NCBI GenBank assembly: GCA_039188945.1
Contig: JBCCYW010000002.1
Location: 26,449 to 90,448 of the forward strand
DNA length: 64,000 nucleotides
Origin: Patescibacteria group bacterium
Lineage (GTDB): Bacteria; Patescibacteriota; Minisyncoccia; Phycocordibacterales; UBA918
Reading direction: 5' to 3'
Shown here: positions 1,701-44,979 of the stretch, one piece after another
Position numbering within the stretch: position 1 is the stretch's first letter
Layout of the letters: each line of letters begins with the position of its first letter
Translations under genes and position numbers: made by a program
The notes under the pieces: model-generated
What the model was told of the DNA's origin: nothing
Seen by the model: only the letters and a program-made list of their open reading frames with translations
Database searches by the model: none

Positions 1701-1721
1701 TTTTGTTAGACAACACGTGTC

Positions 1722-3573: not shown

Positions 3574-3581
3574 AGGTGTAT

Positions 3582-4649: not shown

Positions 4650-4651
4650 AC

Positions 4652-5017: not shown

Positions 5018-5025
5018 TAAAAATA

Positions 5026-6831: not shown

Positions 6832-6838
6832 AGTACCG

Positions 6839-7168: not shown

Positions 7169-7169
7169 A

Positions 7170-8509: not shown

Positions 8510-8563
8510 CTACTTATTATATGTCTATTGCTCTAGATTTTTGTCCATTGGTGTGGACACATC

Positions 8564-21127: not shown

Positions 21128-21487
21128 CTACTGTTTCTTGCAACACGTTCCGCGAACGGTCACTTCTAGTTCGCCGATTTCAAAACCATCGAGACCGAGC
21201 AACTCTTTAATCTTTTTATCCGGGGCATTAAAGTGCATTACTTTTTTACATTCACCACAAACCGCGTGGTGATGAGAAGCTGACTTTAGTTCGTATTGAG
21301 CCTCCTTACCGCCAAGCTGTAGTTTCTTCACCACGCCATCCTCGACAAACAACTCTAAGTTGCGATAGATTGTCGCCAAATCAATTTCGGGCAGTCGCTC
21401 ATGCAGCTGTGCCGCTGAAAGTGCGCAAATTTCTTGCTGCAGCAACGAAAGAATTTGTTCTCGCTTTTTACTATGTCGTCTAGTCAT
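21128..21487 (-). CDS. Fur-family metalloregulator (Zur/Nur-like by context)
   Basis: Fur signature HHHAVCGECKKV plus a C-terminal CC pair. Last gene of the COG0523 cluster. A 6-2-6 inverted repeat AAATACgtGTATTT lies at its start codon. Confidence 0.85.
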   Translation of the reverse strand: MTRRHSKKREQILSLLQQEICALSAAQLHERLPEIDLATIYRNLELFVEDGVVKKLQLGGKEAQYELKSASHHHAVCGECKKVMHFNAPDKKIKELLGLDGFEIGELEVTVRGTCCKKQ

Positions 21488-21559
21488 AAATACGTGTATT
21501 TAGTATGAAAATGGTCCGCCGCCAGCTAGGTACGGCGGACCGAGGATTTGTGTGGCAGC

Positions 21560-22360
21560 TTACTCTACAGCCACAAGCTCAGCTTCTTCGCCGAGCAGGA
21601 AGCGACGGGCTTCCTCGGCGTGATGACCGAAGTCACCAAGCTTACGTTGCGCCACGATAGCTTCGGTTGAAGCTTCCGTAAAACGCAGGTAGCTCTTCAC
21701 TTCTGCCGAACCAAAGTCGGCAGAAGCGGCGAGAATTGCCGGTGGCACATCCCGGACAGAAATTCCGTCCCAAAGTGAGTTGCCAACCGTCAACACGTCA
21801 GCGTCGAAGAATCGACCCTTGCTCTCGCGAGTGTTGTAGTAGTCAGACTCGAAGAGAACATCCAGATCGTCAGTGGCAACTGCGATCTTACAACAGCTGC
21901 AACCAGCAACTATCTGAATGCCAAACTCCTGATCCAGCAAACGGTTGAGTTTGCGCATGCCAGCAGTACGCAGCGCCAGTTTCTCCATCGGACCATGCAG
22001 CAGCTCGGTTTCGTGGGTTTTTACCCGCATTACCCGGTCATGCTTTTTGGACCAGAAGAGGATGGACAACGGGTTGGCCGCCAGCTTGAAGCCAACGCCT
22101 CGAATCTTCGAGAACGAGCCCTCGAGATAGCGCTGCGTCAGCTCCGCGACACCGGCAACCTCCAAGAGGCGCGGTTCATTGAGAAGATCGCCGATTTTGG
22201 CAATCAAAGACTCGCCGACAAGCGGGCAGTACTTAGCCAGTACCTTGGCGTCATTCGGGACATAGTAGCCCCAAATTGTACGTGTTCCGTCCTCGTTGAG
22301 GGCGGGATTGGCCTTGGCAGCCGGTTGCAGTCGGTCGTAGAAGTCACAGACTTCGCACAT
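21560..22360 (-). CDS. Hypothetical Cys-rich protein (266 aa), candidate client or partner of the adjacent metallochaperones
   Basis: N-terminal CEVC and internal GCSCC motifs. No family recognised. Followed by a 9-bp-stem hairpin at 21520-21548. Confidence 0.45.
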   Translation of the reverse strand: MCEVCDFYDRLQPAAKANPALNEDGTRTIWGYYVPNDAKVLAKYCPLVGESLIAKIGDLLNEPRLLEVAGVAELTQRYLEGSFSKIRGVGFKLAANPLSILFWSKKHDRVMRVKTHETELLHGPMEKLALRTAGMRKLNRLLDQEFGIQIVAGCSCCKIAVATDDLDVLFESDYYNTRESKGRFFDADVLTVGNSLWDGISVRDVPPAILAASADFGSAEVKSYLRFTEASTEAIVAQRKLGDFGHHAEEARRFLLGEEAELVAVE

Positions 22361-22463
22361 GGTTCACCTCACGGGTTTGATGGTTTGTTGGGTACGTGTT
22401 TTGACACTGTCATCAGTGTTGCAGGGGGCATTTCAAATGAAATAACCCCTGTGGCACCGACGA

Positions 22464-23312
22464 CTATACAGCTGCAAATTCCCGATTACGCTTGAACTTT
22501 TTTACAGTCCGTTCCAAGCGGTTATTCTTGTGAACCTCTATCGCCTTTGTAGAAATCATTTGCAATTCGTTGGCCCACTCCCCGACAACGGACGAAGGGT
22601 CTCGTTTAAGGCCAGTGCTTTCCATCAAAAACGCCGCTGGCTCAACTCCTAGTTTTGAATCAATGAAATCTTTATCTTCACTTGAAGTCACTTTATTCCC
22701 AACAAAAATGTACGGGGTTTCGTAGAAGTTCATCAACTCTGCGATCTGCTTGGCCGTCTTTACGCTATGAAGTGCTGGCTCACACACAATCACACCCACA
22801 TCGATACCAGTCACAATGCCAGTTGAAACACCGTCTGCACCAGCCTTTTCGTCTACGATCACAGTTTCGTTCTCCTGTAGCTCTAAGAGCGGTAGGAGGA
22901 TCTTAAGCGGAGTTGTGAGACTGTGACTGCAGTGCGTGCCATAGAGTACGCTATCTGTCTGAGGACCAGCAGCCATCAACCTAATACCATTTTCAAGCTC
23001 TCGAGAATAGTCTGCAATCTCATTTGATAGTGGTGACAAAGAAAAACGAGTATCTGTATTCTTAAGAAATGCCTGATCGTACTTCTCACCCTCTGAAAGT
23101 CCAGCCGCACTTTGCAGTGTGCTAAGGCTCTGACTAAAATACTTGAGCTCTAACAACTCGCCTGAGGTGAGGTTGTATGAAAGATCCATATTGTGATCAG
23201 CATCAATTGCCAGCACTGACTTTTTTTGGTCATTGAGAAAAAGCGCCATCTGTGTCGAAACAGATGATTTGCCACTTCCTCCTTTACCTAGAAATCCTAA
23301 AATCATAGTCAT
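22464..23312 (-). CDS. ParA/MinD/CooC-type P-loop ATPase (deviant Walker A)
   Basis: GFLGKGGSGKSSV matches the deviant Walker A KGGxGK[ST]. Size and context fit a CooC-like metallocentre-assembly ATPase. A Cys/His motif HCSH is present. Confidence 0.7.
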   Translation of the reverse strand: MTMILGFLGKGGSGKSSVSTQMALFLNDQKKSVLAIDADHNMDLSYNLTSGELLELKYFSQSLSTLQSAAGLSEGEKYDQAFLKNTDTRFSLSPLSNEIADYSRELENGIRLMAAGPQTDSVLYGTHCSHSLTTPLKILLPLLELQENETVIVDEKAGADGVSTGIVTGIDVGVIVCEPALHSVKTAKQIAELMNFYETPYIFVGNKVTSSEDKDFIDSKLGVEPAAFLMESTGLKRDPSSVVGEWANELQMISTKAIEVHKNNRLERTVKKFKRNREFAAV

Positions 23313-23315
23313 TCA

Positions 23316-24509
23316 CTACCACTCAGAAAACGGATCTTCAAACGTGCGCCACCCAGTTACCCCGAGCTGCCACTCTTCATCCGTCAGCAAACATTTGTTG
23401 AGACTTTCGGTAATTGCCTCTTTGTTCATATCAATGCCGATAAATACGAGTTCTTGGCGATGATCAAAGTACGGCGCTTGCCAATGTTTCTCAACTGCCT
23501 GTTGCTTGATCATGTCTGGCCATTGATTTGGGTCAATGATACCCCACCACCAACCAGCGGCGCGCAGCGACAGCAGTGTGCCAGCCAGCGAGAGATCACC
23601 GGCTTGCTCAAAGCGAGTCGCCAGCCAGAAGAGCCCCTTAGCCCGCACCACTGTCTTGGGAATACTTCCCGTCCACTCTTGAAAACGTTGTGGATGGAAC
23701 GGTCGATCAGCTTTGTAGACAAAACTATCAATACCGTACTCGAGCGTTTCTGGCACATGCTCGCCACGCAATTCCTTCAGCCACATCGGCGCGAGCGCCG
23801 CCTTTTCAAAATCAAATAGGCCAGTGTTCACGATCTTCTTGAGTGGCACCTCAGAATAATTAGTTTCGATGATCTCAGCGTCAGTATTGAGCGACTTAAT
23901 CACCCCAAGAATCTTCTGCTGTTCTGCTTCAGAAACATCAGCCACTTTGTTGAGAATAATGATGTTGGCAAACTCAATTTGATCAGTCAGGAGATTGACA
24001 ATATCTCGCTCGTCTTCTTCGCCGAGTGACTCACCTCGCTCTTGTAAGGTCTCGCGTGAGTTCCAGTTCTCCAAAAAATTCACGGCATCTACCACTGTCA
24101 CCATGGTGTCTAGCTTGGCAAAGTCTTTGAGAATATCACCGCTCTCATCATCAAACGTGAAGGTTTCTGCCACCTGCATTGGCTCACCAATTCCGGTTGA
24201 TTCAATAATCAAGTAATCAAACTTACCTTCCTGCGCAAGACGCTTTACCTCAATCAAAAGATCTTCGCGAAGTGTGCAACAAATACAGCCATTGCTCATC
24301 TCTACCAACTTTTCTTCAGTTCGGCTGAGCTCAGCGTCACCGCGTGCCACGATATCAGCGTCGATGTTGACCTCAGACATGTCGTTTACGATGACAGCTA
24401 CCTTAAGACCTTCGCGATTACGAAGGATGTGATTGAGTAAGGTCGTTTTACCACTACCGAGAAAGCCTGAGAGAACGGTTACTGGTAGTCGAGAATCGTT
24501 TGTTTCCAT
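23316..24509 (-). CDS. COG0523-family G3E GTPase (CobW/YciC/ZigA-like metallochaperone)
   Basis: P-loop GFLGSGKTT, metal-binding [10 protein letters not shown] (CxCC), and the C-terminal CobW_C-like domain. Confidence 0.85.
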
Positions 24510-24555
24510 AGTTCAAAATATACGTGAGCCAAAATAATACCGCACCCCAGTAATA

Positions 24556-24571
24556 TTGCAAATCATTTGCA
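24556..24571. promoter_or_regulatory. Candidate Fur/Zur-family operator upstream of the COG0523 operon
   Basis: TTGCAAATcATTTGCA, a 7-1-7 palindrome of the AT-rich ATcAT-centred type. It lies 47 nt upstream of the COG0523 start, in the divergent region shared with the 24610 gene. Confidence 0.4.
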
Positions 24572-24609
24572 TTTAGAAACACCTGGCTAAGTTCTTCCTT
24601 TTTGCTATA

Positions 24610-25203
24610 GTGCGAGTAATGAATGAACATATTAAATTAGCGCTGGCGTTTGGAGCTGGCGTCGTGCTCACCCTGGTTTTTCTTTCCCTTACCAAAAGTG
24701 CCGAGGCACCATCTGAAGTAGATATTATTGAAGTAACCCAGACTGAAGAAGCTGATAGTGCAACAACATCTAATGAGGACGCTGCAGAGACAACCCAACA
24801 AAGTCCTACAGCCTTATCACCTACCCCAGCTCCTGTAGCTGCACCACCAGTAGTACAAGAAACCTATCCCACCAGTGCTTTAGTGCGTTTTACCGGACGG
24901 CAGTTTGAACCTGAGACCGTGCTCATTGTTGAAGGTGGGCGGGTGACCTTTCAAAACACCAGCGATGACGATTTGATGCATATTATTAGTGGTCCAATTC
25001 CTCGTTATGATGCCTATCCAGGCAACGGCCGCCCCGGCTGCGCCCCAACCTTGTTTGATCAGTGTAATTCAGTAGCTCCAGGTGGCACGTGGAGCTTTAC
25101 CTTTGATGAACTTGGTGGTTGGACCTACTACAACAAAGAGGATCAGGTGTTCTCAGGGCGAGTCCGTGTTCTCACTCGCGAGCAATTCGATAATGAGTTT
25201 TAG
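24610..25203 (+). CDS. Hypothetical secreted/membrane-anchored protein
   Basis: Signal/anchor sequence, Thr/Pro/Ala-rich linker, and a C-terminal globular domain with 2 Cys. A terminator hairpin follows. Confidence 0.5.
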   Translation: MRVMNEHIKLALAFGAGVVLTLVFLSLTKSAEAPSEVDIIEVTQTEEADSATTSNEDAAETTQQSPTALSPTPAPVAAPPVVQETYPTSALVRFTGRQFEPETVLIVEGGRVTFQNTSDDDLMHIISGPIPRYDAYPGNGRPGCAPTLFDQCNSVAPGGTWSFTFDELGGWTYYNKEDQVFSGRVRVLTREQFDNEF

Positions 25204-25210
25204 AACGAAA

Positions 25211-25240
25211 TAAGCCCCACTGCTGTGGGACTTATTGTTC
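25211..25240. terminator. Bidirectional terminator hairpin
   Basis: ataagccccacTGCTgtgggacttat. Confidence 0.5.
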
Positions 25241-25260
25241 GCATAATCTACCAGTTGAGC

Positions 25261-25521
25261 CTACTTGCTTGAGTCGCCCTGTAGCAGCTTAAGCAATTGA
25301 TTGAGAGTCATTTCTCCTGACAAATCTGCAGCTTCTGGTGGATTTTCGATGACACCAGCATTCTCAATCGCAGTTGCGATATCAAAGAAGTCTGCATCAT
25401 CTAGATCCAACTCAGCAAAGGTTTTGTCGGCGTCACCTCGCTTAAGCTCCTTTTCTGCAGGCAAGGCTTTATTGATGGTTTCAAGCAACCAATTCAGGCT
25501 GATTTCGACAAGCTGTGTCAC
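25261..25521 (-). CDS. Acyl-carrier-protein-like small acidic protein lacking the phosphopantetheine-site Ser
   Basis: Helix-II-like segment ELDLDDADFFDIATAIE aligns to the ACP block DLGADSLDTVELVM, with Asp in place of the modified Ser. Low-confidence homology. Confidence 0.35.
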   Translation of the reverse strand: MTQLVEISLNWLLETINKALPAEKELKRGDADKTFAELDLDDADFFDIATAIENAGVIENPPEAADLSGEMTLNQLLKLLQGDSSK

Positions 25522-25571
25522 GCTGTTCTCCTTTTGAATCTATTCCGTTCTGTATCGTATCAAATAAAAAA

Positions 25572-26717
25572 TTATTTGATAGCATTCGCCACCTTCTTCA
25601 CCAAGCCCGGGGCATTGTTGGTTGGGATGATGGTATTCTCGTCTGGTTTTTTAATCATCCCCGCAATCTGCTCGGCCGCCTTCAATTTCATCTTATCGGT
25701 GATTTTGATGACCTTATTATCGAGGGCACCCCGGAAAATACCTGGGAACGCGAGTGAGTTATTCACTTGATTAGGAAAATCTGAGCGTCCAGTCGCCACA
25801 ATGCGAGCACCGGCGCGCTTCGCGACATCAGGCATGATCTCGGGAATCGGATTGGCCAGGGCAAACACAATACTATCGGGAGCCAATCGTTCGATATGAG
25901 CCGGCGCAATTGTACCCGGGCCTGATACACCGATGAGCACATCGGCGCCCTCAACAATTGCTTGGACATCTCCCTTTATCTTGTGTGGGTTGGTGATGGC
26001 GGCGAGGTCTTTTTTGTAGCCAGAGAGGCCCGGGCGGCCGGCATAGATGGCCCCTTTACTGTCTGACACAATGATTTCTTTAATACCAGCCTCACGCATC
26101 AGAAGCGTGACCGCTCGGCCGGCCGCCCCAGCCCCTACCACCACAACTCGTAGTTTCTTGAGCGGTTTTTTTACGACCTTGGCAGCATTTATAAGTCCGG
26201 CTAAGACCACGATTGCCGTCCCATGCTGATCATCATGCATCACCGGGATAGCAAGCTCAGCCTTCAAGCGCTCTTCAATCGTAAAACACTTCGGCGCCGC
26301 AATATCTTCTAGGTTGATCCCACCAAACCCTGGCGCAATTGCTTTTACCGCAGCGACAATCTCGTCTTCTGTATGCGCATCGAGCACAATTGGCCACGCA
26401 TCAATATCGGCCAGCTCCTTAAAAATCGCCGCCTTTCCTTCCATCACGGGCATCGCCCCTAAGGGACCGATATCACCGAGCCCCAGCACCGCCGAACCAT
26501 CAGACACCACCGCCACCGTATTGCCTTTAGTGGTATAGGTACGAGCGTCTTGCGGCTTCTTAGCAACATGCGAAGACACCGCGGCTACACCAGGTGTGTA
26601 CATGGTGCTCCAGTCGGTTTTGGTCACCAGTCTACCTTTACTCTTCACCTCAATCTTGCCGCGGTGTTTTTTATGCAACTTCAATGCCAGTTCGTTATAG
26701 TTTGGTTTTTTTGCCAT
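25572..26717 (-). CDS. NAD(P)-dependent malic enzyme (malate dehydrogenase, oxaloacetate-decarboxylating), short form
   Basis: Malic-enzyme N-terminal block YTPGVA, dinucleotide motif VVVVGAGAAGRAV, and 381-aa length typical of MaeB-type small malic enzymes. Confidence 0.85.
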   Translation of the reverse strand: MAKKPNYNELALKLHKKHRGKIEVKSKGRLVTKTDWSTMYTPGVAAVSSHVAKKPQDARTYTTKGNTVAVVSDGSAVLGLGDIGPLGAMPVMEGKAAIFKELADIDAWPIVLDAHTEDEIVAAVKAIAPGFGGINLEDIAAPKCFTIEERLKAELAIPVMHDDQHGTAIVVLAGLINAAKVVKKPLKKLRVVVVGAGAAGRAVTLLMREAGIKEIIVSDSKGAIYAGRPGLSGYKKDLAAITNPHKIKGDVQAIVEGADVLIGVSGPGTIAPAHIERLAPDSIVFALANPIPEIMPDVAKRAGARIVATGRSDFPNQVNNSLAFPGIFRGALDNKVIKITDKMKLKAAEQIAGMIKKPDENTIIPTNNAPGLVKKVANAIK

Positions 26718-26817
26718 ATGTTTTATGAAAATGTATTACCTTATTTGCTACGCATTAATCGCCACAATAATACACGAGGGCCGCGGCGAATGCTCACCAC
26801 GGCCCTGCCGCACCATC

Positions 26818-27129
26818 TCATGAGTCCGGACTAACATACTCAATAACATCGCCCACTGTCTTGAGTCTTTCTGTATCCTCAAGCGTGATGTCAATGTCGC
26901 ACTGTTTCTCCAACTCCATCACAAAATTTAAGAATGCAGTTGAATCAATCCCAAGATCATCTGTGAAGCTGTGTCCAGCCAGAGACCCTTTTTCATCACT
27001 GCCACTTTGAGACCTCTCGATCTGCATTCTCACTCTTTTCTGTATCCCTGGATGCAGGGAAAGCGACTCAAGCAAGGCTCGCAAGACAAAGTTTTCGTCA
27101 CGCCCAACCTCTTGGTGTGCCACTACCAT
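26818..27129 (-). CDS. acpP: Acyl carrier protein
   Basis: SFTDDLGIDSTAFLNFVMELEKQCDIDITLED...TVGDVIEYV, the canonical DSL-type phosphopantetheine attachment block. Strong RBS aaaggagagaaacATG. Confidence 0.65.
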   Translation of the reverse strand: MVVAHQEVGRDENFVLRALLESLSLHPGIQKRVRMQIERSQSGSDEKGSLAGHSFTDDLGIDSTAFLNFVMELEKQCDIDITLEDTERLKTVGDVIEYVSPDS

Positions 27130-27294
27130 GTTTCTCTCCTTTTGACTGGCTTGGTTTTTATTCGATTATTCCAGAGACAACAATATCAAAAAATTGTCAA
27201 ATGTACAGAGGTATTAATAAACCCCGCGAACGTGGGTTCTAGCGGGGTGGTTGGGGGTCGGCACATGGCCGCCCCCTGATGTGTCGACCTTGAC

Positions 27295-27432
27295 CTAGCG
27301 TTCGTGCCGGCTGCCGGTCGCGATGTCCTGATCCGCGACGTTGAAGTTGTTCGTCAGAGCGGTTGCAGCGCCACACATCTCGCCCGGGTCGCAGCAGGTC
27401 GCCATCATCGCCGTTTTCATATTCCGTTCCAT
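27295..27432 (-). CDS. Small Cys-containing peptide (45 aa) in a GC-rich cassette
   Basis: MERNMKTAMMATCCDPGEMCGAATALTNNFNVADQDIATGSRHER. Strong RBS GAGGAGaagaagATG. Two GC-rich hairpins follow, the second with a T-tract. GC3 of about 70% versus roughly 50% for the host. The track's 78-aa ORF is the same frame extended upstream. Confidence 0.35.
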   Translation of the reverse strand: MERNMKTAMMATCCDPGEMCGAATALTNNFNVADQDIATGSRHER

Positions 27433-27603
27433 CTTCTTCTCCTCAAGATCCTGGGCCACTCTGTGACCCTTTCGCGTTCCGGCCCCAAAATCGGGCCGTC
27501 CTTGCACTATAGCCTGCCTCCCAAAACACACAACCCTCTTTCTATGGTCTGGTTTGAATAGTAATGATTTTAAGGATTTGTCAAATTTTGTCCCAAACAG
27601 TAG

Positions 27604-27629
27604 TGGCCCGATGTTTTAAACATCGGGCC
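27604..27629. promoter_or_regulatory. Near-perfect 25-nt palindrome (operator/hairpin candidate) between the 77-aa ORF and the peptide gene
   Basis: ggcccgatgttttaaacatcgggcc. Confidence 0.4.
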
Positions 27630-27849
27630 GCAGGTTAATTTGAGGCAGTTGGAGGCGAACATAGGCAGGAAACAAACCGTCCCAGCTAGCGACGCGGTCG
27701 CTTTCATCAACTTCAGCTGTAGTGTTGGGCGCACTCCGCATCCTCGCGCGAATGTAGTCACCAACAAGACTTCTGTTAGTTGCTACCAAAATCATTCTCC
27801 CTGTCTCAGAGCATCGAACGTAAAGTTCGAAAAAACGTGTATTTCTCAT
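27616..27849 (-). CDS. Hypothetical 77-aa protein upstream of the Cys peptide
   Basis: RBS aaagggagaaatcagATG. No family recognised. The stop codon lies within a 25-nt palindrome. Confidence 0.3.
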   Translation of the reverse strand: MRNTRFFELYVRCSETGRMILVATNRSLVGDYIRARMRSAPNTTAEVDESDRVASWDGLFPAYVRLQLPQINLRPDV

Positions 27850-27907
27850 CTGATTTCTCCCTTTTCTTCTTTCAACGTAACGACTTATAGCCTAAAAGTA
27901 AAGCTTT

Positions 27908-30130
27908 TTGTTACTATTACTCAACATGAAACCCTACCACCAACTGTCAGACCATTTCCGAATTGATGCCCCGCACCAAAAAGCGCTCAAGCGCTTAGGA
28001 ATTAAGACAGTCGAAGATTTGCTCTACCACTTGCCTGCTCGGTATGAAGATATTACTGATGTGCAATCGGTGGCGGGTTTGGAGAAAGGTCGGGAAGCGG
28101 TAGTGTATGGGCAACTCTCGGGCTTAAAAAGCAGGAAGGCGTGGCAGAGCCGGCGGCCAATTGCCGAAGGCTATATTGAGGACGGCTCCGCCAAAATAAA
28201 AGTAATGTGGTTTAACCAGCCGTATCTGGCGAAGATGTATGTCGATGGGATGTATGTCAAAGTAGCTGGGAAAGTGACCGGTAGTGAGGGCAAGCTGTAC
28301 ATTGCTAACCCAGAAGTAGAGAAACTTGACTCTCTGCCGGTCGATCGCCACGACTCAATTTTTAAAGGGAGTAACACCGAACAAGACGACACCCTCTACC
28401 CGGTCTACCGCGAAACGAAAGGAGTGACGAGTAAGTGGTTCTATCACACAGCGTTGAAGTGCTTTGAGAAAGGTGTTTTGGAGCACTTGCACGACCCAAT
28501 TCCAGAATCAATTCTGAAAAAATACAAGCTCCCGGTCCTCTCCACTGCTCTGGTATGGATCCACTCGCCCAAAAAAGCTAGTGACGCCGAAGCGGCCCGC
28601 AAGCGCTTTGCGTTTGAAGAGGTGTTTTATATTCAAGTCCAGAAAGCGATGGAACGCGCAGCGGTAAGCGCAGCCACCACCTACCAATTTAAAACTACGA
28701 AAAGCCATGTTAAGGAATTCACCGATCGCTTCCCCTTCAAGCTCACCAAAGCCCAAAGTGACGCAGTATCGGCGATCTTGAAAGATTTCAACGGCAACCA
28801 TGCGATGGGTCGTCTCTTGGAGGGTGATGTTGGTAGCGGGAAGACGGCGGTCGCGGCGACGACTGCGTATGCCGTCGCCACGTCGCGACCGCCAGAAGGG
28901 ACAAAGAGCGCGGGGCGCTCTTTGTCGAAAGCAGACGTTGACTGGGGCAATCTGCAAGTAGCGTACATGGCTCCAACCGAAATTCTCGCCAAGCAGCACT
29001 TCGAGAGCTTCATCGAATACTTTCACCACCTCCCGATTCAAATCGGTCTCATCACTGGTTCGGGTTGTCAAAAGTTTCCGAGCAAAGTCGATCCAACCAA
29101 ACCAACCAATATCTCGAGAGCCCAACTCCTAAAGTGGGTGAAAAATGGTGAAATCCCGATTCTCATTGGTACGCACGCCCTTATCTATAAGTCGGTAGAA
29201 TTTAAGCATCTCGCGCACGTCATTATTGACGAACAGCATCGCTTTGGTACCAACCAACGCAAGGCTTTGGCCAAGAAAGATGCTCGTATGCCACACCTTC
29301 TCTCCATGACTGCCACCCCAATTCCCCGCACCCTGGCTCTTACCATTTATGGTGACCTCGACATTACCCTCCTCGATCAGATGCCGGCCGGCCGCAAACC
29401 TGTCATAACAAAAGTAATCGGCCCAGGTCAAAGTAAAGAAATGTACGAACACGTACGAGGTGAACTTGCGGCCGGCCGTCAAGCCTATGTGATTTGTCCA
29501 CGTATCGACGAGCCCGACCCAGACAAAGCTTCGGCCTTGCGATTGAAGTCGGTCAAGGCCGAAGCTAAACGTTTGCAAGAAAAAGAGTTTCAAGACTACA
29601 AAGTAGGCATTCTACACGGCAAGATGAAACCAAACGAAAAAGACAAAGTGATGGAGGAATTTAATGATCACAAGTTTGATGTGCTTGTCGCAACCAGTGT
29701 CGTCGAAGTCGGAGTGAACGTGCCAAACGCCACTAATATTATTATCGAAGGCGCCGAGCGCTTTGGTCTCTCCCAATTACACCAACTGCGCGGTCGCGTG
29801 ATTCGTGGTACCCACCAGCCATATTGTTTTGCGGTCACTGATAGTAAAAGTGAAAAAACCAAAGAACGCCTCTCAGCGCTCTCGACTGCCAAAAATGGTT
29901 TTGAACTGGCGGAACATGACCTGCAGTTCCGCGGCTCTGGCGAACTGTATGGCGCTAAGCAATCAGGCCTCACTGACCTTGGAATGGAAGCGATTAAAAA
30001 TTTGAAGTTAGTAGAAGCCGCCCGCAACGAAGCAAGGGATTTAGTGGAAGCTCACCCAGACCTCAACAAAAACTTCCCTCTCATATATGAAAAAGTTGCC
30101 AAAATCGGCGAGACGTTACATATGGAGTAA
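27908..30130 (+). CDS. recG: ATP-dependent DNA helicase RecG
   Basis: N-terminal wedge/OB domain, helicase motif I LEGDVGSGKTAVA, motif II DEQHRFG, and the C-terminal TRG motif region. Confidence 0.9.
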   Translation: MLLLLNMKPYHQLSDHFRIDAPHQKALKRLGIKTVEDLLYHLPARYEDITDVQSVAGLEKGREAVVYGQLSGLKSRKAWQSRRPIAEGYIEDGSAKIKVMWFNQPYLAKMYVDGMYVKVAGKVTGSEGKLYIANPEVEKLDSLPVDRHDSIFKGSNTEQDDTLYPVYRETKGVTSKWFYHTALKCFEKGVLEHLHDPIPESILKKYKLPVLSTALVWIHSPKKASDAEAARKRFAFEEVFYIQVQKAMERAAVSAATTYQFKTTKSHVKEFTDRFPFKLTKAQSDAVSAILKDFNGNHAMGRLLEGDVGSGKTAVAATTAYAVATSRPPEGTKSAGRSLSKADVDWGNLQVAYMAPTEILAKQHFESFIEYFHHLPIQIGLITGSGCQKFPSKVDPTKPTNISRAQLLKWVKNGEIPILIGTHALIYKSVEFKHLAHVIIDEQHRFGTNQRKALAKKDARMPHLLSMTATPIPRTLALTIYGDLDITLLDQMPAGRKPVITKVIGPGQSKEMYEHVRGELAAGRQAYVICPRIDEPDPDKASALRLKSVKAEAKRLQEKEFQDYKVGILHGKMKPNEKDKVMEEFNDHKFDVLVATSVVEVGVNVPNATNIIIEGAERFGLSQLHQLRGRVIRGTHQPYCFAVTDSKSEKTKERLSALSTAKNGFELAEHDLQFRGSGELYGAKQSGLTDLGMEAIKNLKLVEAARNEARDLVEAHPDLNKNFPLIYEKVAKIGETLHME

Positions 30131-30150
30131 TGCACGAGATTGGCCTGGTC

Positions 30151-30205
30151 GCAAAGAGCGCCAGGCCAGGTTGGGTCGGGGATATGTTCAGTCCCCGGCT
30201 TAGAT
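30151..30205 (+). terminator. Tandem hairpins downstream of recG
   Basis: ggcctggtcgcaaagagcgccaggcc then cggggatatgttcagtccccg followed by gcttagattt. Confidence 0.45.
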
Positions 30206-30526
30206 TTACTTCTCAGCTTCACAGCGATTCGCTCCCATTAAGGGTTATGAAACTGGTCAAATCCTTGAGATGAGCCTAAAAGGCTGGATCACCTCCGTTT
30301 TGTGTCGTCATGTAAAGATCGGAAATTGCGGGGGCTCAAGGCCAAAAACTCTTTGTTCAGGATGTTTTCTCCTCTTTTTTATGAGTGCCAATCGCACTCA
30401 ATTTCTTTGTACCATGGAGAAATGCAGTCGACAACCCACCCTGTGCTTAACAAAAGACAATACTGATACAGCAAGTCAACTGTTTGAGGAATAGTGCCCT
30501 GCGCGGTATAGTTTCCCCACTATCAG

Positions 30527-30575
30527 CCGCCCTTAGCTCAGTTGGTAGTAGCGCGAAGCTTACAAATGAATGAAC
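30527..30575 (+). repeat. Degenerate copy of the 5' half of tRNA-Ile, ending at the anticodon loop
   Basis: ccgcccttagctcagttggtagTagcgcgaagcttacaa versus the gene ccacccatagctcaatcggtagagcgcgaagcttatac. Similarity stops at the anticodon loop. Confidence 0.55.
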
Positions 30576-30640: not shown

Positions 30641-30715
30641 CCACCCATAGCTCAATCGGTAGAGCGCGAAGCTTATACCTTCGTGGTTCCAGGTTCAAGT
30701 CCTGGTGGGTGGACC
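30641..30715 (+). tRNA. tRNA-Ile (anticodon UAU)
   Basis: Hand-folded. Acceptor CCACCCA/TGGGTGG, D arm GCTC/GAGC, anticodon stem CGAAG/CTTCG with loop CTTATAC, T arm CCAGGTTCAAGTCCTGG, discriminator A and encoded CC. Confidence 0.7.
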
Positions 30716-30915: not shown

Positions 30916-32421
30916 ATGCGGATCCTTCTCAGCGGAAAATCATATTACGTCGTTGGTGCAGTTATTTTAATTGCAGTGGCTTTGGTAATGCTCTTCTCAT
31001 TAAGTAGTCGGAAGGGCGAAGAAATCGTCACCACTACCGTAGACCAAGGTGAAGTACTACAACTCGTATCAGTATCGGGTGTGGTAGAAGCTGAAAATAC
31101 GGCCGAACTAGCCTTCCCCGTGACTGGTATCGCTCGCGAAATCAATGTCCGTGAAGGTGATTTTGTGCAAGAAGGCGAAGTAATGGCCACCATTGAGCAG
31201 AGCACACTCCTAGCCGATCGGAAAGACGCTCTGGCTGCCCTTGGTTCAGCGCGGGCTGACCGTGACGAACTCATAAGTGGACCGCGCGACGAGCAGCGAG
31301 CCGTCACCAATCAAAATATTCTTATTCGAGAAAATGAACTCGAACAAACCATAACTGAAGAAGAGCAAAAAGTAGCTAACGCCCGCCGTACCTTCCTCTC
31401 ATCTAATCTCCAAGCCCGTTCGCTCGATCCAGAAGAAACCGCTACTGCGCCAACCGTGAGCGGCAGCTATAACTGTGATCAAGCGGGTGAATACATCCTG
31501 GATGCATTTTCTTCAGATGCTGAGTCTGGCTTTTCTTTCCGGCTGTCAGGACTTGGGGGCGGTACGTACCCAGCAACTACTGATCAAGCGAGCTTGTTTG
31601 GCAGCTGCGGTCTCAAACTACAATTCACGAGCGGTGATCGCTACTCAAATTCAGATTGGATTATCGAAATTCCTAATACAAAATCACCCAACTACATCGC
31701 TACTCTGAACGCTTTAGAGCTCGCCGAAGACCAAGCTACCAACAACATCCGTGACGCTGAAGAGGCTCTTAGCCTGGCTCTGCAGGAGCAGACCCTTGAA
31801 AATGCCGACCCCCGCAGTGAAGCCTTAGCGCGAGCAAATGCAGCGGTTGCCCAGGCAGAGGCTCGACTTGAACGGGTGAACGCTGAAATCGAAGACCGCA
31901 CCCTACGAGCCCCGTTTGCTGGCACGGTAACAAACGTTGATATTTTGGCTGGCGAAACAGTAAGTACCAACCCGGTCATTACACTCCTGGCTGATGACGT
32001 GTTTGAAATGACCGCGCGAATTCCAGAAATTGATATTACGAAAGTCTCAGTCGACCAACCAGCCGAGATCGTGTTTGACGCGCGAACAGAGGAGGTGCTC
32101 CCCGCACACATTAGTTTTATTTCACCCCTAGCAACCGAGATCGATGGAGTCGCTTACTACGAAGCAAAACTACAATTTGATGAACCACCGTCTTGGCTGC
32201 GCAGTGGCCTCAACGCAGATATTGATATTATTGTCGAAGAGCGCGTGAACGTAACCCGGTTGCCAAAGCGATTTGTGATTGAAGACAATGGCGTGTACTC
32301 AGTCATGGTGATGCAGGGCGAAACTAAGGCCTCTACAACTGTTGAAGTTGGAGTTGTCGGTAATGACGGCTATATCGAAGTTATCGGACTAAACGTTGGC
32401 GACATTATCGTCGCCCCGTAG
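30916..32421 (+). CDS. Periplasmic adaptor subunit (HlyD/MFP family) of an ABC-type efflux system
   Basis: N-terminal TM, biotin-lipoyl-like hairpin, long coiled coil and beta-barrel. Paralogous to 14350-15891 and carries the same inserted domain. Confidence 0.75.
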   Translation: MRILLSGKSYYVVGAVILIAVALVMLFSLSSRKGEEIVTTTVDQGEVLQLVSVSGVVEAENTAELAFPVTGIAREINVREGDFVQEGEVMATIEQSTLLADRKDALAALGSARADRDELISGPRDEQRAVTNQNILIRENELEQTITEEEQKVANARRTFLSSNLQARSLDPEETATAPTVSGSYNCDQAGEYILDAFSSDAESGFSFRLSGLGGGTYPATTDQASLFGSCGLKLQFTSGDRYSNSDWIIEIPNTKSPNYIATLNALELAEDQATNNIRDAEEALSLALQEQTLENADPRSEALARANAAVAQAEARLERVNAEIEDRTLRAPFAGTVTNVDILAGETVSTNPVITLLADDVFEMTARIPEIDITKVSVDQPAEIVFDARTEEVLPAHISFISPLATEIDGVAYYEAKLQFDEPPSWLRSGLNADIDIIVEERVNVTRLPKRFVIEDNGVYSVMVMQGETKASTTVEVGVVGNDGYIEVIGLNVGDIIVAP

Positions 32422-32422
32422 C

Positions 32423-33670
32423 ATGCAGTCGCTTCGGGTTGGCTTACTCCTTGGTTTGCGCCAAATCCAGCGCGCTAATATTTGGACCACCCTCCTGATT
32501 ATTTTTGTGATGATGCTCACGTTTCTCAACCTGATCGCCGTATCAGGTATTTTGGTAGGTCTGATTGAAGGAGCTGAACGAGCGGTCCGCGCGGAGTCAA
32601 TCGGTGACATTATTATTTCTGCCCGTGACGACGAGGACAGAATCCTTGAGACCCCAACCTTTGAGCGGCAATTGCAAGCCTTCCCCGAAATCACTGCCTA
32701 CTCAATTCGTTACGAAGACGGTGGCATTATTGAAGCTAATTACGAAGAACGTCGTGACCTTTCTGGTGAGCGTGATATCGCTTCAGTTCGGGTCACGGGT
32801 ATCGATCCTGTCCAGGAAGAATTGATGAGCAACCTTTCCAAAAGTGTGGTAGCCGGAGAATATCTAGACCCCGACGAAGAAGGTTTTATCTTGCTGGGCG
32901 CTCTCTATACTGAAGAGTACGCCGAGAACTTTGGTGATATTTTTGAAACAGTGTCTGGCGTTGAGCCAGGCGATAAAGTCCGCCTAACTTCAGGCAATAT
33001 CTCAAAAGAATTTACAGTGAAGGGAATTGTGCAATCAAAGGTCGATGAGGTCTCCCTCAACAGCTACATTCCCGAGCGTGAGTTCCGACGTGTTTTTGAA
33101 CGCTTCGACCGCAACGCTGACCAAATTGTTATTCGTGTGGTGGAGCAAGGGATGGAAGATGGGGTGAAAGCGTCACTTGTTTCGGCTGGCCTCGATGATT
33201 TTGCCAAGATTCAAACGTATGACGAAGGCAAGCCAAAGTTTATTACCGACATCAAAAACACTTTCAATATTCTTGGTACCTTTATTGGTTCGATTGGAAT
33301 TGTGGTCGCATCAATCACGATCTTTATTATCATTTTCATCAACGCGCTTTCGCGTCGGCGACAGATTGGTATCTTGAAAGGTATTGGTATCCAACGTCAG
33401 GCCATCGAGTTTGCTTACGTGATCCAAGCCGCTTTCTACGCTCTCTTTGGGTCAGCCCTCGGAGCATTTGTGACCTACGTGATCCTGATTCCGTATTTTG
33501 ATGAAAATCCAATTAAGTTCCCCTTTAGTGACGGTATCCTGGTGGCTGAGCCAGAGGGTACCTTCTATCGTTTCTTGGTACTCTTTGTGATCACTCTGCT
33601 CGCTGGACTTTTGCCAGCCTGGCTGATCGCGAAGCAGAACACCCTTAATTCCATTCTTGGACGTAAATAA
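32423..33670 (+). CDS. ABC transporter permease, FtsX/MacB-like (DevC-type)
   Basis: TM1, a large periplasmic loop, then 3 C-terminal TM helices in FtsX-like arrangement. The ATG at 32423 (2 nt after the adaptor stop) is preferred to the track start at 32396. Confidence 0.8.
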   Translation: MQSLRVGLLLGLRQIQRANIWTTLLIIFVMMLTFLNLIAVSGILVGLIEGAERAVRAESIGDIIISARDDEDRILETPTFERQLQAFPEITAYSIRYEDGGIIEANYEERRDLSGERDIASVRVTGIDPVQEELMSNLSKSVVAGEYLDPDEEGFILLGALYTEEYAENFGDIFETVSGVEPGDKVRLTSGNISKEFTVKGIVQSKVDEVSLNSYIPEREFRRVFERFDRNADQIVIRVVEQGMEDGVKASLVSAGLDDFAKIQTYDEGKPKFITDIKNTFNILGTFIGSIGIVVASITIFIIIFINALSRRRQIGILKGIGIQRQAIEFAYVIQAAFYALFGSALGAFVTYVILIPYFDENPIKFPFSDGILVAEPEGTFYRFLVLFVITLLAGLLPAWLIAKQNTLNSILGRK

Positions 33671-33675
33671 ACATC

Positions 33676-34362
33676 ATGGCAATTATTGAAGCAAAAAACA
33701 TTCACCGTCGCTTTGGAGAAGAACCGCTCGTTACCCATGTTCTTAAGGGTGTTGATGTGAGCGTTGAAGAAGGTGAATTTGTTGCCATCATGGGCAAGTC
33801 GGGAGCTGGCAAATCAACCCTCATGTATCAACTCTCAGTCCTCGATGAACCGAGTGAAGGAAGCATCACCATCAATGGTGTCACGGTGGATACTATGTCT
33901 GAAACTGAACGTACGGAATTTCGCCTCAACACTCTTGGGTATGTGTTCCAAGACTACGCCCTGGTGCCAGACCTTAACGCTGAAGAGAATGTCTTAATGC
34001 CACTCCTCATGAGTGGTGTTGACTGGGATGAATCAATCAGAATTGCTCGCGAAGCAATTGATTCCGTCGGACTTGAAGGCAAGTACCCCAACCTTCCTGG
34101 TATGCTCTCGGGGGGTGAGCAGCAGCGTGTTGCGGTCGCTCGAGCGATTGCCGGCAAGCCAAAGATTTTATTTGCGGACGAACCAACCGCCAATCTCGAT
34201 AGTGTCTCAGGGAAGCAGATTATTGAACTGATCACTTCTCTCAATCGCGACTACCAACAAACGGTTGTCATGGTGACGCATGAGCGAGAGTATGCCCTTG
34301 GGTGTGACCGGATTTTCCATATGGAAGACGGCGTTATTGTGGATGTCGAGCAATTACGATAA
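33676..34362 (+). CDS. ABC transporter ATP-binding protein (MacB/LolD-like, DevA-type)
   Basis: Walker A GKSGAGKST, Q-loop, signature LSGGEQQRVAVARA, Walker B ILFADEPT and H-loop. Confidence 0.9.
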   Translation: MAIIEAKNIHRRFGEEPLVTHVLKGVDVSVEEGEFVAIMGKSGAGKSTLMYQLSVLDEPSEGSITINGVTVDTMSETERTEFRLNTLGYVFQDYALVPDLNAEENVLMPLLMSGVDWDESIRIAREAIDSVGLEGKYPNLPGMLSGGEQQRVAVARAIAGKPKILFADEPTANLDSVSGKQIIELITSLNRDYQQTVVMVTHEREYALGCDRIFHMEDGVIVDVEQLR

Positions 34363-39243: not shown

Positions 39244-39637
39244 GGGGATGACAGGCATCGACGGTTAGCGGTTTAAATATATGTGCAGTGTCGCAGCTGA
39301 ATACTGACTGCGTTACAACAGTGTTCACTTGTACGTGCAAAGAATAGCGTACCAAGCCCATACGCCAAGGCGTTTGGCTTCGCTCCCGCTGTAGCGTAAC
39401 TCTACGCTCGCCGAAGCGACATCAGACTACCCCACTTCTCATAAGGTAGCCCTGGTGTAATAACCATGAGAATATAGTCAACGATTGGTCAGGTCGTTGA
39501 TCGAATTTCTTATGACTCGAACCTAACGTGTTTTGTTACTTCTCAAGCTTTAGGTTTTAAATCAAAGGAGTGACTACGCACTGTAGACTCATGTATTTGC
39601 CCTAACTCGGACGGGGGTTCAACTCCCCCCATCTCCA
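39244..39637 (+). ncRNA. ssrA: tmRNA (ssrA), one-piece
   Basis: 5' GGGGATGACAGGCATCGACGG (compare E. coli GGGGCUGAUUCUGGAUUCGACGGG). The 3' tRNA-like end is GGACGGGGGTTCAACTCCCCC-CATCTCC-A, whose acceptor strand pairs with the 5' end. Candidate tag ORF GCA AAG...GTA GCG TAA encodes (A)KNSVPSPYAKAFGFAPAVA. Confidence 0.8.
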
Positions 39638-41152
39638 CATACTGGGAACCTTTAGACGGTTTCTGCTTAAATAACCTTACTGGTATTGATAGATTTCCGG
39701 TTCCAAAACCATTTTCTGGACTATACGTGATAGGTTCGTTAAAGACTAGTTTTAGAACTAGTCTTTTTCGTTGAAAATCACCTTCTATCCAGTATTTGCT
39801 TGGATTCTTCAATATAGAAAATACTGCCTGTAATGCGGTTCCAAAATCTTCCTCCTCTACATTAGATTTCTTAGTTGCAGCCAGTAGTTTTTGTCTCTCA
39901 TCATCTATTTCTTCTACGCGCTTCTCATAAGCTCTCGCCACCTTTTCCTTGTCAGCACCGGCTACTCGACTGATTAACCTGTTCTGTTCTTCATCTAGTT
40001 CCTTCAACTGTCTATGAGCTTTGTTGATCTTTGCTTTTAGTTGAGCCGCCCGACTATTCCACTCTTCAAGAAAGATAGCTTCTACTAGTCCCGTCGCATT
40101 TTCTGAAGGTTGTAGTTTCTTAAGTAAGGAAACAAACTGTTTTTCCATCTTATGACCATTGAAACTCTTCTTGCAGCTATCGCAGTTCTTTTCGTTTCTA
40201 CCTCGATAGTACGGATATTTTTTTGTCCTACCCACACTCCAACTAGCCGTCATTGGAGTACCGCATGCTTCACAACAAACAAACCCCTTAGTGGAAAGTC
40301 TGGATTATCATTCTTTCGCTTCTTGAGTATCGGTTTACCAGCAACTATTGCATCCAATTTCTCCAGAATTTCGTCATTGATAATTGCTTCATGGTGACCC
40401 TTTCTCCTATCAATATCCCATTTTGGATACTCAATATAGCCAGCATACAAAACTCTTCTTTCAATCAACCTATCGACTAACGATAAGTGTATGGCCTTTC
40501 CATCCTTGAAGTCATGTCTGGTTAGGAAATTTTTCACTTCAGTCCTACTCAGAAACCTTCCGTTTGCAAAACCCTCAAGTGCTTCAAACACTAGAACGGA
40601 CTTTATTTCATCCTTAACCAAGAGCCACCCACCCAGAGCGTGCTGCTGGCGTTTATAACCAGGTATAACAGAACCAAAAGTCCAGTACCCCTTTTCCATA
40701 CGAGCTTTCATTTTTTGTATTACCTGAACTCGATTAGTTCTTCTTTCGTTTTCATTAAATACAGCAGATATGGCCTCATGTAACCAGGTACTTTCATCAT
40801 CCTTGAATTCAAAATTTGGGGAATCAACAATGGCTCCAAGTTTTTTAAAATGATCCCTGAGTTGCCAGTGACTAATAGTATCTCTGGCTAACCTTTTTAA
40901 ATCATCGAAAATAACCACATACTCTTTGTGTCCGTTGTCAGCAATATACTCCAGCATTTCAGCCATCTTTGGTCTCTTCATGTAGTCACCACCGCCAGTG
41001 AAACTGTCAGGAAACACACGCTCAACCTTATATCCAAGTCTAGCTGCGTATTCGCGGCACCTATGTTCTTGGCTATCAAGACCATGTCCGTCATTCTTTT
41101 GACGTTCAGATGAAACCCTACAATAAATTAAAGCCTTCCTTTCCATAATCAA
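39543..41152 (-). pseudogene. Large serine recombinase, split by a frameshift
   Basis: 40250-41152 encodes the resolvase catalytic domain (ALIYCRVSSERQ, catalytic Ser) and recombinase domain. 39543-40253 encodes the zinc-ribbon CxxC...CxxC and coiled-coil region in another frame. The junction lies in aaggggtttgtttgttgtg, where frame A reads GLFVV* and frame B reads GFVCCEACG. The last roughly 30 codons are antisense to the tmRNA 3' end. Confidence 0.75.
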
Positions 41153-41352
41153 AATGTATCGTATTTAGAAAACTCCTCGTCCAAGATTCCAACAATCAAT
41201 TCTTGTAATCCATCACGAATATCTTCGATTTCTTTATCGCTTAACTTAGTTTCGCCCAGATATTTTCGACATTCTTCGATAGACAACATAAAAAGCATCT
41301 CGCCTGAGATGCCTCCTACTTTCGGTACACAACACAAGGAAATAGGAAGCAC
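41149..41352 (-). CDS. Small hypothetical protein overlapping the recombinase start (possible excisionase/RDF-like accessory)
   Basis: Overlaps the recombinase by 4 nt (ATGA). Acidic C-terminus. No family recognised. Confidence 0.3.
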   Translation of the reverse strand: MLPISLCCVPKVGGISGEMLFMLSIEECRKYLGETKLSDKEIEDIRDGLQELIVGILDEEFSKYDTF

Positions 41353-41476
41353 TACAGACTTCTTTATTCCCTGAAATTATGTGCTTAGCTTCTAACGCTA
41401 AGTTGTACTTAAATACTAAGTGGCTCTTCTGCACTCCGCAAACAGTAGTGCGTGGATAGTATTTAAAATGCAGTAA

Positions 41477-41815
41477 CTAGTTACAGTTTGTTGCTTCAGA
41501 TTTACCGACAGTGTACGTTCCATTTGAACCATTTTGAATACTCTCTTTCTCCTCTGGCAAATATGCAAACACTGTTACCTCATCGGCATTTAAAAGATAT
41601 TTGTCCCGAATGAAATCCAATGTTCGCTGATATGCTCCTGAGTTATCGATGACAACATACACTGTTTCTCTTTTACATCCAGGATATGAATCATCTCTCA
41701 CTGTTACAACCTCGTAGTCCAAAGGTTTAAACGTGCTTGTGGAGCCCAAATTCTCGTTCTGGGACTCTGGAACTAGTGAACCTATAAAGATAGGGCTAGT
41801 ATCCCAAACGTGCAA
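41477..41815 (-). CDS. Hypothetical protein (island cargo)
   Basis: 112 aa. First gene of the minus-strand island operon. No family recognised. Confidence 0.35.
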   Translation of the reverse strand: MHVWDTSPIFIGSLVPESQNENLGSTSTFKPLDYEVVTVRDDSYPGCKRETVYVVIDNSGAYQRTLDFIRDKYLLNADEVTVFAYLPEEKESIQNGSNGTYTVGKSEATNCN

Positions 41816-42011
41816 TATATAAATTTTTTCATGGTTACCGGCTTATTGTTTCTAAAGCACTATAAAACCCTCACCAAGGTTTTATAGTCCGAAGACCAGC
41901 CGGTAACCAAACACAGCCCTTGATGAGGGGTTTATAAGTTTGGTTACCGGCTTTATTCAGTTGTGAGTAGATTATGCCATAGTAATTCATGATTTACACT
42001 TTTAGTGTATA

Positions 42012-43217: not shown

Positions 43218-43671
43218 GATTGTTCCAGACACAAATGTCTTAGTGGGGAGCATGCTTGGCGGAGGAGGACCGAAGCGTTGGGTAATCAATCTAGCTCTCG
43301 AGAAAAAAATAGCTCTCTATGGTTCTTCGGTCTCTTATGCTGAATTTATGGATGTCATTCAGCGTGAAGAATTCAAACCATATCTTGAGAAGCAAATTTA
43401 TACTGTTGAGAAATTAGAGCATGACTACAAATCAGTCATTACGATAGTTGATACTGAAGGTGTTTATGAAGGAATTACCATTACTGAAGACCCAGATGAT
43501 GACGAATACTTTAGAATCGCAAAAGCTGAAGGAATAAAAGTTATTGTTTCTGAAGATAACCACTTAAGGAAAGTAGGGAGATACGAGGATATTAGAGTAG
43601 TGACAGCAAAACAATTTACAGACTCCTACATCTCAGCTATCGCAAAGACTGAACATCCTTCTTCAAACTAG
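43210..43671 (+). CDS. PIN-domain protein (putative toxin-antitoxin toxin component, PIN family, TIGR00305-like)
   Basis: IVPDTNVLVGSML first acidic motif, ITEDPDDDEYFRIAKAEG, and IVSEDNHL: conserved Asp/Glu positions of PIN nucleases. Confidence 0.7.
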   Translation: MIKIVPDTNVLVGSMLGGGGPKRWVINLALEKKIALYGSSVSYAEFMDVIQREEFKPYLEKQIYTVEKLEHDYKSVITIVDTEGVYEGITITEDPDDDEYFRIAKAEGIKVIVSEDNHLRKVGRYEDIRVVTAKQFTDSYISAIAKTEHPSSN

Positions 43672-44320: not shown

Positions 44321-44334
44321 ACAATGGCCATTAC

Positions 44335-44826: not shown

Positions 44827-44979
44827 GGTTATTCTTCTCTTCTCCCTGCTCCTTTAGAACCACGTGCATATCAAATATCCACTGCTGCAATACATCCCAG
44901 TTCTCCCGCACCGTGTCCACCAATCTCTTCTTATTTGAACACAAAACCCTCACTTAACAGTGAGGGTTTTGTGTAGTAT

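Follow-up and report, generated by a model that had tools for sequence, protein, structure and literature searches.

Genomic islands are usually expected to be AT-rich, and Met/Cys-rich Cu(I)-binding motifs and bacterial metallothionein-like micro-proteins exist as dense thioether/thiolate clusters. Both genomic islands and horizontal gene transfer have been documented in the Patescibacteria (PMC12455944). The described systems that come closest to the locus treated here are strain-specific islets at hotspots flanked by core genes and integron cassettes expressed from a resident promoter. The locus belongs to a Patescibacteria metagenome-assembled genome (MAG; assembly GCA_039188945.1, contig JBCCYW010000002.1), of which a stretch of 64 kb with a G+C content of 46.6% was analysed; this whole stretch is called the window, and all positions refer to it. 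The subject of this study is a 45-aa open reading frame (ORF) on the minus strand (27295-27432) in the gap between recG and the gene for an NAD-malic enzyme (hereafter malic). An earlier reading of the DNA letters, the sequence-only reading, had proposed that this peptide could be a bacteriocin-like precursor, a metal-binding micro-protein or one half of a toxin-antitoxin pair. With moderate confidence, we read the feature as a micro-gene cassette that is self-contained, specific to its strain and placed in a hypervariable islet between recG and malic. We show the anatomy of the unit, its compositional anomaly, the orphan status of its product, the hotspot that houses it and the promoter that it shares with relatives, and we weigh what these may mean for its origin and function.

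The peptide gene is predicted to be a transcription unit of its own, which consists of an upstream hairpin, a promoter, a leader, a Shine-Dalgarno sequence (SD), the ORF and tandem terminators. The unit is preceded by a perfect 12+1+12 palindrome, GGCCCGATGTTT A AAACATCGGGCC (27605-27629; -20.1 kcal/mol, z=-5.5), which reads as a putative terminator or insulator hairpin just upstream of the peptide promoter. This 25-nt palindrome had been described as separating two genes; it is present, but it is no simple separator, as it includes the stop codon and the last codons of a 77-aa ORF and has a promoter after it. That promoter is a sigma-70-like module, TTGACA-N13-ATTACTATTC (27556-27584, minus strand), with the -35 element TTGACA at 27579-27584 and a -10-like TACTAT at 27558-27563, and its pattern occurs a single time in the window. 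A 5' leader of about 120 nt follows (27433-27555, minus strand); its single-sequence fold has a z of -1.9, and beyond the first 45 nt or so it is GC-rich and unique. The SD of the peptide is as strong as had been noted: GAGGAG (27439-27444, minus strand) ends 6 nt before the ATG at 27432. The two hairpins reported after the stop codon are likewise there (27216-27276, minus strand). Hairpin A spans 27253-27276 and hairpin B, which is followed by UUUAUU, spans 27222-27247; together they reach -36.8 kcal/mol (z=-3.06, with none of 200 shuffles as good) and likely form an intrinsic terminator. At the level of sequence, the parts of an autonomous small-protein unit are thus all found, namely a promoter, an SD within 5-9 nt of the start, start and stop codons and an intrinsic terminator. 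The unit is also flanked by a 9-mer, ATTTGACAA, of which the first copy lies within the peptide promoter (27578-27586) and the second beyond the hairpins (27194-27202); no further copy exists in the 64 kb. The two share the minus strand at a distance of 384 nt and may represent a pair of -35 regions or the trace of an insertion.

The ORF itself, MERNMKTAMMATCCDPGEMCGAATALTNNFNVADQDIATGSRHER, stands at 27432-27295 on the minus strand as the sequence-only reading had placed it. Two gene callers, the Prokaryotic Genome Annotation Pipeline (PGAP) and the Logan pipeline, called a gene at this locus, and the ORF is part of the NCBI protein MEM9336398.1, a 54-aa hypothetical protein (AAGA35_00900). 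Its G+C content by codon position is.52/.50/.80, with G or C at 37/46 third positions against 47/92 at the other two (Fisher p=9e-4) and at 86% of the four-fold sites, and this periodicity begins at the ATG, with none upstream. Genes of the window have a third-position G+C content (GC3) of.32-.66 with a mean of 0.47±0.07, and even the ribosomal proteins L35 and L20 lie at.46-.50, against 0.80 for the peptide ORF. Its codons (GCG, ACG, CCG, CGG, CTG) are those chosen in high-GC genomes, and the claim of a foreign composition therefore holds for this ORF. The high-GC3 patch of roughly 600 bp with two genes that had been described around it is real as a GC-rich patch, but it measures about 300 bp (27221-27525; 61.6% GC vs 46.6% for the window) and leaves out the 77-aa ORF, whose GC3 is 0.45. 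The most GC-rich 200-nt segment of the entire 64 kb falls inside this patch. A GC3 raised above that of the genome argues for a real coding sequence with non-native codon usage. Periodicity confined to the ORF, an optimal SD and a complete unit of this anatomy would hardly arise by accident, and the design is repeated at this locus with other ORFs. We therefore take the peptide ORF as most likely a genuine coding sequence, at present or until recently, and it is rather probably translated.

The same cannot be said of its supposed partner. The 77-aa ORF is present at 27849-27616 on the minus strand, as had been stated, with an SD (GGGAGA) at 27856-27861, and its coding status is doubtful. Its G+C content by codon position is.55/.46/.45, so that its GC3 is the genome average; it is called in the Logan assembly only and, as far as the protein collection shows, stands outside the NCBI annotation of the MAG; its codon log-likelihood is reached by 25% of spurious ORFs; and its AlphaFold single-sequence model (predicted local distance difference test, pLDDT, 53) is unusable. 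Because a terminator hairpin and a promoter lie between them, the 77-aa and 45-aa ORFs are separate transcription units and not a pair.

Neither protein has a homologue in 5.8-15 billion proteins, in viral contigs or in the metagenomes of the Joint Genome Institute (JGI). For the peptide, a word-indexed search of 5.8 billion clustered proteins found itself alone, an exhaustive phmmer search against 1.84 billion representatives found nothing real, and viral contigs and JGI metagenomes held no relatives; the homologue search for the 77-aa ORF also returned itself alone. One extra phmmer match, P0003, was rejected as an artefact, since this 917-aa repeat protein owes its score to a sum over 10 repeats. 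The sequence-only reading had suggested a homologue search as a test of whether the Cys positions are conserved; the collections searched contain no homologue to compare. Pfam and NCBIfam gave no family for the 45-aa and 78-aa versions, and sequence searches of Pfam, NCBIfam, PHROGs, PADLOC and the PDB gave nothing for the 45-aa or the 77-aa protein. With Rfam also empty, the peptide lies outside the standard families, as had been supposed. A BLASTN search of the patch against phages and plasmids met only chance matches of 27-45 nt. The Rfam scans, one of the whole window and a sensitive one of 27100-27950, gave no match at the peptide unit at gathering thresholds or at E<=10; they returned a transfer-messenger RNA (tmRNA), two tRNAs elsewhere and chance matches to Pxr and EBV sisRNA far below threshold. 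Coverage of the region by a known RNA family, which the sequence-only reading had named as the outcome that would count against it, is thus not seen down to E<=10.

The islet sequence is no artefact of a single assembly, because window positions 24273-30556 are 100% identical in a separate 6.3-kb Logan assembly of run SRR22824305. The flanks of the gap are conserved core genes: recG starts at 27926 on the plus strand, and malic lies at 26717-25572 on the minus strand. Among 81 related genomes fetched through RecG (73-86% identity), malic(-) and recG(+) lie side by side and diverge in 67; the gap between them measures 39-4591 bp and differs in content from genome to genome. The three gap ORFs of the window, which are the 77-aa ORF, the peptide and a 103-aa acyl carrier protein (ACP), have no counterpart in the gaps of 80 relatives, whether looked for with tblastn, tblastx, blastp or phmmer. 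Since the gap contents vary and the ORFs of the window are absent from the relatives, the stretch 26718-27925 (1.19 kb) is an islet peculiar to this strain within a hotspot common to the clade. Other genomes carry in this gap tandem cold-shock-domain proteins, PEP-CTERM-like secreted proteins, a GtrA-like membrane protein and other orphans. The tandem cold-shock-domain proteins occur in at least 12 relatives (L003, L006, L014, L029, L036, L045, L048, L050, L053, L070 and others), and their genes have a GC3 of.48-.81, mostly far above that of their own genomes. Orphan micro-genes comparable to ours are found in the gaps of L048 (44 aa, GC3.93, 7 His and 2 Cys) and L056 (59 aa, GC3.92, 7 His and 1 Cys), both complete with their own promoter-like sequence, SD and hairpins or terminators. 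Across the relatives, ORFs in the gaps exceed the mean GC3 of the locus by 0.10 and recG does so by 0.05, while malic has no excess and the other neighbours lie slightly below; the GC maximum of the locus of about 18 kb falls in the gap in many relatives. The short gaps of L024, L028, L034, L047, L076 and others, empty ones included, hold a perfect palindrome (e.g. GGGGCAAATTT...AAATTTGCCCC) that stands between the divergent promoters of recG and malic, and a conserved cgTATACTa -10 element of malic comes after it.

What the relatives share with the window is the promoter and not the gene behind it. The peptide promoter and the first 45 or so nt of the leader are homologous to sequences on the same strand of the same gap in L005 (two copies), in L021 and in a metagenome contig (L110/L117), with 81% identity over 43 nt in blastn (E=1e-4) and E=1e-4 in single-sequence nhmmer. 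Among the 81 loci, the pattern TTGACA-N13-WTTACTATTC occurs only in L005, twice, and in L021. The ORFs behind these modules encode 67 aa (L005a, GC3.94), 101 aa (L005b, GC3.91), a 224-aa secreted protein (L021, GC3.78) and 104 aa (L110, where the G+C downstream of the promoter is.53-.60). They have no detectable similarity to one another, pairwise BLASTP of the peptide against the L005 cassette proteins found none, and the latter have no relatives in viral contigs. In L005 each copy of the module is preceded by a perfect 19+1+19 palindrome, which mirrors the palindrome of the window. L005 also carries a segmental duplication (5680-7990) in which the first 94 codons of malic are repeated at 6454-6759, beside the second palindrome and module copy, as would be expected if alleles of the islet swap by recombination through the conserved flanks. 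In metagenomes, 62 contigs contain the promoter pattern and a profile (nhmmer, E<=1e-3) recovered five, of which L110 and L117 are the best and longest; the three other, shorter matches were taken as chance, and so were all 4 viral contigs with the pattern.

Put together, these observations suggest a scenario in which accessory genes, often GC3-rich, would probably be swapped at this site by homologous recombination through the conserved flanks, while a sigma-70-like promoter module common to the relatives would drive a leader of about 120 nt and a 45-codon ORF, ended by two hairpins. There is about an even chance that the peptide gene is foreign in origin, as DNA acquired at the recombination hotspot. 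The horizontal acquisition that the sequence-only reading had suggested has a foreign composition in its favour, but no donor was found.

As for function, the CC...C motif that had been pointed out is real, and it is part of a larger cluster of M5, M9, M10, C13, C14, M19 and C20, that is 4 Met and 3 Cys in 16 residues; the peptide also has one His. Seven Met/Cys in 16 is the densest such cluster among all 441 six-frame ORFs of at least 40 aa in the window, and the real proteins of the window (Met 2.2%, Cys 0.6%) have at most 4 in any of 14,305 segments of 16 residues. A dense cluster of Cys/His/Met ligands, as would be looked for in a metallothionein-like micro-protein, is therefore at hand. 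This cluster and the His/Cys-rich micro-peptides of other gaps make the binding of a soft metal such as Cu(I) or Zn, or of a thiol-reactive ligand, the best functional guess, which we offer on grounds of composition as a tentative and rather unlikely one; in that case the peptide would act through such binding. Of the earlier proposal of a metal-binding micro-protein, the ligand cluster is seen, while no homology to a metal-binding family was found. A weak hint from the context is that at 3-6 kb from the peptide lies a minus-strand operon (21128-24609) that encodes a COG0523/CobW GTPase, a ParA/CooC-like NTPase, a 266-aa ORF that has no Pfam match (GC3.62) and a Fur-family regulator. Its promoter region contains a perfect 7-1-7 palindrome, TGCAAATcATTTGCA (24557-24571), which is a candidate Fur/Zur operator. 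A regulatory link from the Fur family to the peptide was considered and rejected, because no site related to 24557-24571 is found near the peptide.

Several points weigh against a functional cassette acquired from elsewhere. No donor was found, and GC3 is also enriched in apparently resident cold-shock-domain genes at the locus, which keeps a local or expression-linked cause of the GC3 signal in play. The native codon usage score of the peptide ORF is equalled by 21% of spurious ORFs; being free of homologues, it has no conservation or dN/dS support for translation or function; its AlphaFold single-sequence model (pLDDT 56) is unusable, and the product is probably disordered. The metal-binding idea is drawn from composition only, and the Fur-family box has no copy near the gene. 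The strongest of the competing accounts, which we consider possible though clearly the less favoured, is that a local process raised GC3, be it GC-biased conversion at a recombination hotspot or the codon bias of very strong expression, in an ORF that is native or arose de novo. It would explain why unrelated genes of the same gap are GC3-rich, including the cold-shock-domain genes of at least 12 relatives, why recG stands 0.05 above the locus mean and why no donor homologue appears; it sits poorly with malic, which has no excess on the other side, with the ribosomal protein genes of the window at only.46-.50, with a codon choice that is that of high-GC genomes, and with the 77-aa ORF and the ACP, which share the gap and are not GC3-rich. 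Somewhat less probable is that the patch is non-functional debris, recently acquired or recombined GC-rich DNA in which the ORF is a relic or an accident free of selection. A singleton that has no homologue, a native codon score like that of spurious ORFs, no predicted fold and a locus that serves as a dumping ground of variable DNA would all suit this account, but the unit is no fragment (promoter, ideally spaced SD, ATG, stop and terminators are complete), the GC3 periodicity coincides exactly with the ORF, and equally complete micro-genes recur at the locus in other genomes.

The remaining alternatives concern the product, and we regard all of them as improbable. A small regulatory RNA, possibly of dual function, for which the ORF is irrelevant, is suggested by the unit as such, which runs for about 340 nt from promoter to terminator and is GC-rich against the 47% GC of the genome. 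The fold of the whole transcript is no better than shuffles (z=-0.41), Rfam is silent to E<=10, and the leaders of the five homologous modules have no consensus structure, while the ORF has strong codon-position periodicity and an SD. A structured non-coding RNA was accordingly rejected, for the region shows no family match, no excess stability and no structure conserved among homologous leaders. Slighter still is the chance that the ORF is a leader peptide, or attenuator, controlling read-through into the ACP gene. It does lie upstream of that gene on the same strand, its Met and Cys codons are clustered, and of the two hairpins after its stop one, hairpin A, competes with an alternative stem (27279-27289/27256-27266). 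Yet 45 codons are long for a leader peptide, the ACP gene has its own A/T-rich upstream region with TTGACA and SD, and homologous promoter modules elsewhere drive ordinary ORFs; above all the reading is weak because no anti-terminator competing with hairpin B could be drawn. Least probable of all is a precursor of a ribosomally synthesized and post-translationally modified peptide (RiPP) or bacteriocin, or one half of a toxin-antitoxin system with the 77-aa ORF, although the product is a small Cys-containing peptide and a MacB-type ABC exporter lies 3.5 kb away. A Pfam scan of ORFs of some 90 aa and upwards, from about 13.9 to 41 kb of the window, found no maturase of the radical SAM, YcaO, LanM or LanBC type within about 13 kb of the peptide; the earlier remark that no maturase is adjacent was thus right. 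No family of precursors, toxins or antitoxins was matched, the Cys residues all fall in the N-terminal half, a division into leader and core cannot be recognised, and by eye the sequence suits no layout of the lasso, lanthipeptide or mycofactocin kind. With neither precursor-family match nor maturase, and no homologues to show Cys conservation, the suggestion of a RiPP or bacteriocin precursor is not supported. The suggested toxin-antitoxin pair fares no better, since a strong hairpin and a promoter intervene and the 77-aa ORF is itself doubtful. No toxin or antitoxin domain of type II was found in either ORF with Pfam, NCBIfam, PADLOC, PHROGs or the PDB, and direct reading of the peptide reveals no hydrophobic stretch, and hence no hydrophobic helix, of the kind looked for in a type I toxin. 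The RiPP and toxin-antitoxin readings of the peptide can be set aside.

The self-contained, strain-specific cassette remains our preferred reading, and its surroundings in the window are as follows. Downstream of the peptide unit, after about 95 A/T-rich nt with a second TTGACA between hairpin B and its own SD, lies the 103-aa ORF on the minus strand (26818-27129), which is MEM9336397.1 in NCBI, annotated as an acyl carrier protein. It is a divergent ACP with a 25-aa N-terminal extension and the motif DLGIDS; it matches PF00550 at E=1.2e-7 and AcpP models at E=7e-14, below the curated equivalog cut-offs, so that both the PP-binding fold and the DLGxDS serine expected of an ACP are found. Its matches are to generic AcpP only, at 44-49% identity over half its length, and it is absent from the 80 relatives; it is the third independent strain-specific singleton of the islet. 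A second ACP-like ORF of 86 aa lies downstream of malic (25261-25521, minus strand) with a weak PP-binding match (E=.015). It has no phosphopantetheine serine, because DLDDAD stands in place of DLGxDS, and it is absent from the 80 relatives, the sole match being a chance-level one to an antisense ORF. Just downstream of recG is a tRNA-Ile with the anticodon TAT (UAU) at 30641-30715 on the plus strand, followed by the MacB-type ABC exporter (HlyD/FtsX/ABC; 30916-34362). Further on, the tmRNA (39244-39640, plus strand) is followed by low-GC3 genes (.32-.38), including a serine recombinase/resolvase (40250-41152, minus strand), and the block 39244-46113 looks like an element integrated at ssrA. 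At the other end of the window (374-9640, minus strand) the ORF N-termini only suggest a type IV pilus or type II secretion-like cluster, with pilin-like GFTLIELLV proteins, ATPases, a platform protein and a PilM-like protein.

Taken as a whole, the feature is an ordinary orphan confined to its strain, and its locus is of modest interest. The less ordinary part is that locus, where, beside recG in a clade of the candidate phyla radiation (CPR), a conserved promoter module is coupled to ORFs of raised G+C that change from genome to genome; the context of recG, gap and malic defines a recombination hotspot in this uncultivated clade. If GC3 marks transfer from high-GC organisms, the locus could mark the DNA-exchange partners of these episymbionts; should the signal be of local origin, the locus would offer a compact example of a bacterial compositional drive that is specific to one site. 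A bolder model, which we consider a long shot, is that this Paceibacteria-like clade has an integrase-less expression platform beside recG. There an insulated module (hairpin and TTGACA-N13-ATTACTATTC) would drive rotating, unrelated, GC3-rich orphan micro-genes, several of them rich in ligands (Met/Cys/His), captured from high-GC donors that may be the hosts of the episymbionts. On this model the 45-aa peptide would count among the captured products, as an effector or a factor that handles metals.

Compared with known systems, the peptide and its locus show likenesses as well as differences. Precursors of the SCIFF/ranthipeptide type and other Cys-containing RiPP precursors share with it a length of about 45 aa and the presence of several Cys, but the peptide has only 3, all in the N-terminal half, with no match to a precursor family in NCBIfam or Pfam and no radical SAM or other maturase nearby. 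A likeness in composition is offered by the Met/Cys-rich Cu(I)-binding motifs and bacterial metallothionein-like micro-proteins, which the arrangement MxxxMMxxCCxxxxMC in a short, probably unstructured peptide recalls, as do the His/Cys-rich micro-peptides of the same gap; it differs from them in having no family homology, no signal peptide and no link to the nearby Fur-family/COG0523 operon. At the level of the locus, integron cassettes with a resident promoter offer a likeness in that unrelated small ORFs stand behind one homologous promoter at a fixed chromosomal site. Here, in contrast, no integrase lies within the scanned region; from about 13.9 kb onwards the scanned ORFs include no recombinase until the serine recombinase at 40250-41152, about 12.7 kb away beside the tmRNA. 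No attC-like sites were recognised, a judgement made without an attC model, and the hairpins are short perfect stems of the terminator type. In L005, moreover, the promoter travels or is duplicated with the cassette, and the similarity of the leaders decays gradually with no crossover end point. The nearest counterpart is found in the strain-specific islets at hotspots flanked by core genes, which are replaced by homologous recombination and with which the locus shares conserved flanks (recG and malic), variable content, atypical composition, orphan genes and, in L005, a partial duplication of a flank that is consistent with recombination. It departs from them in that the islet of the window is very small, at 1.1 kb with three tiny ORFs, in that the composition shifts to higher GC, and in that the promoter/leader module is kept while the ORF behind it changes.

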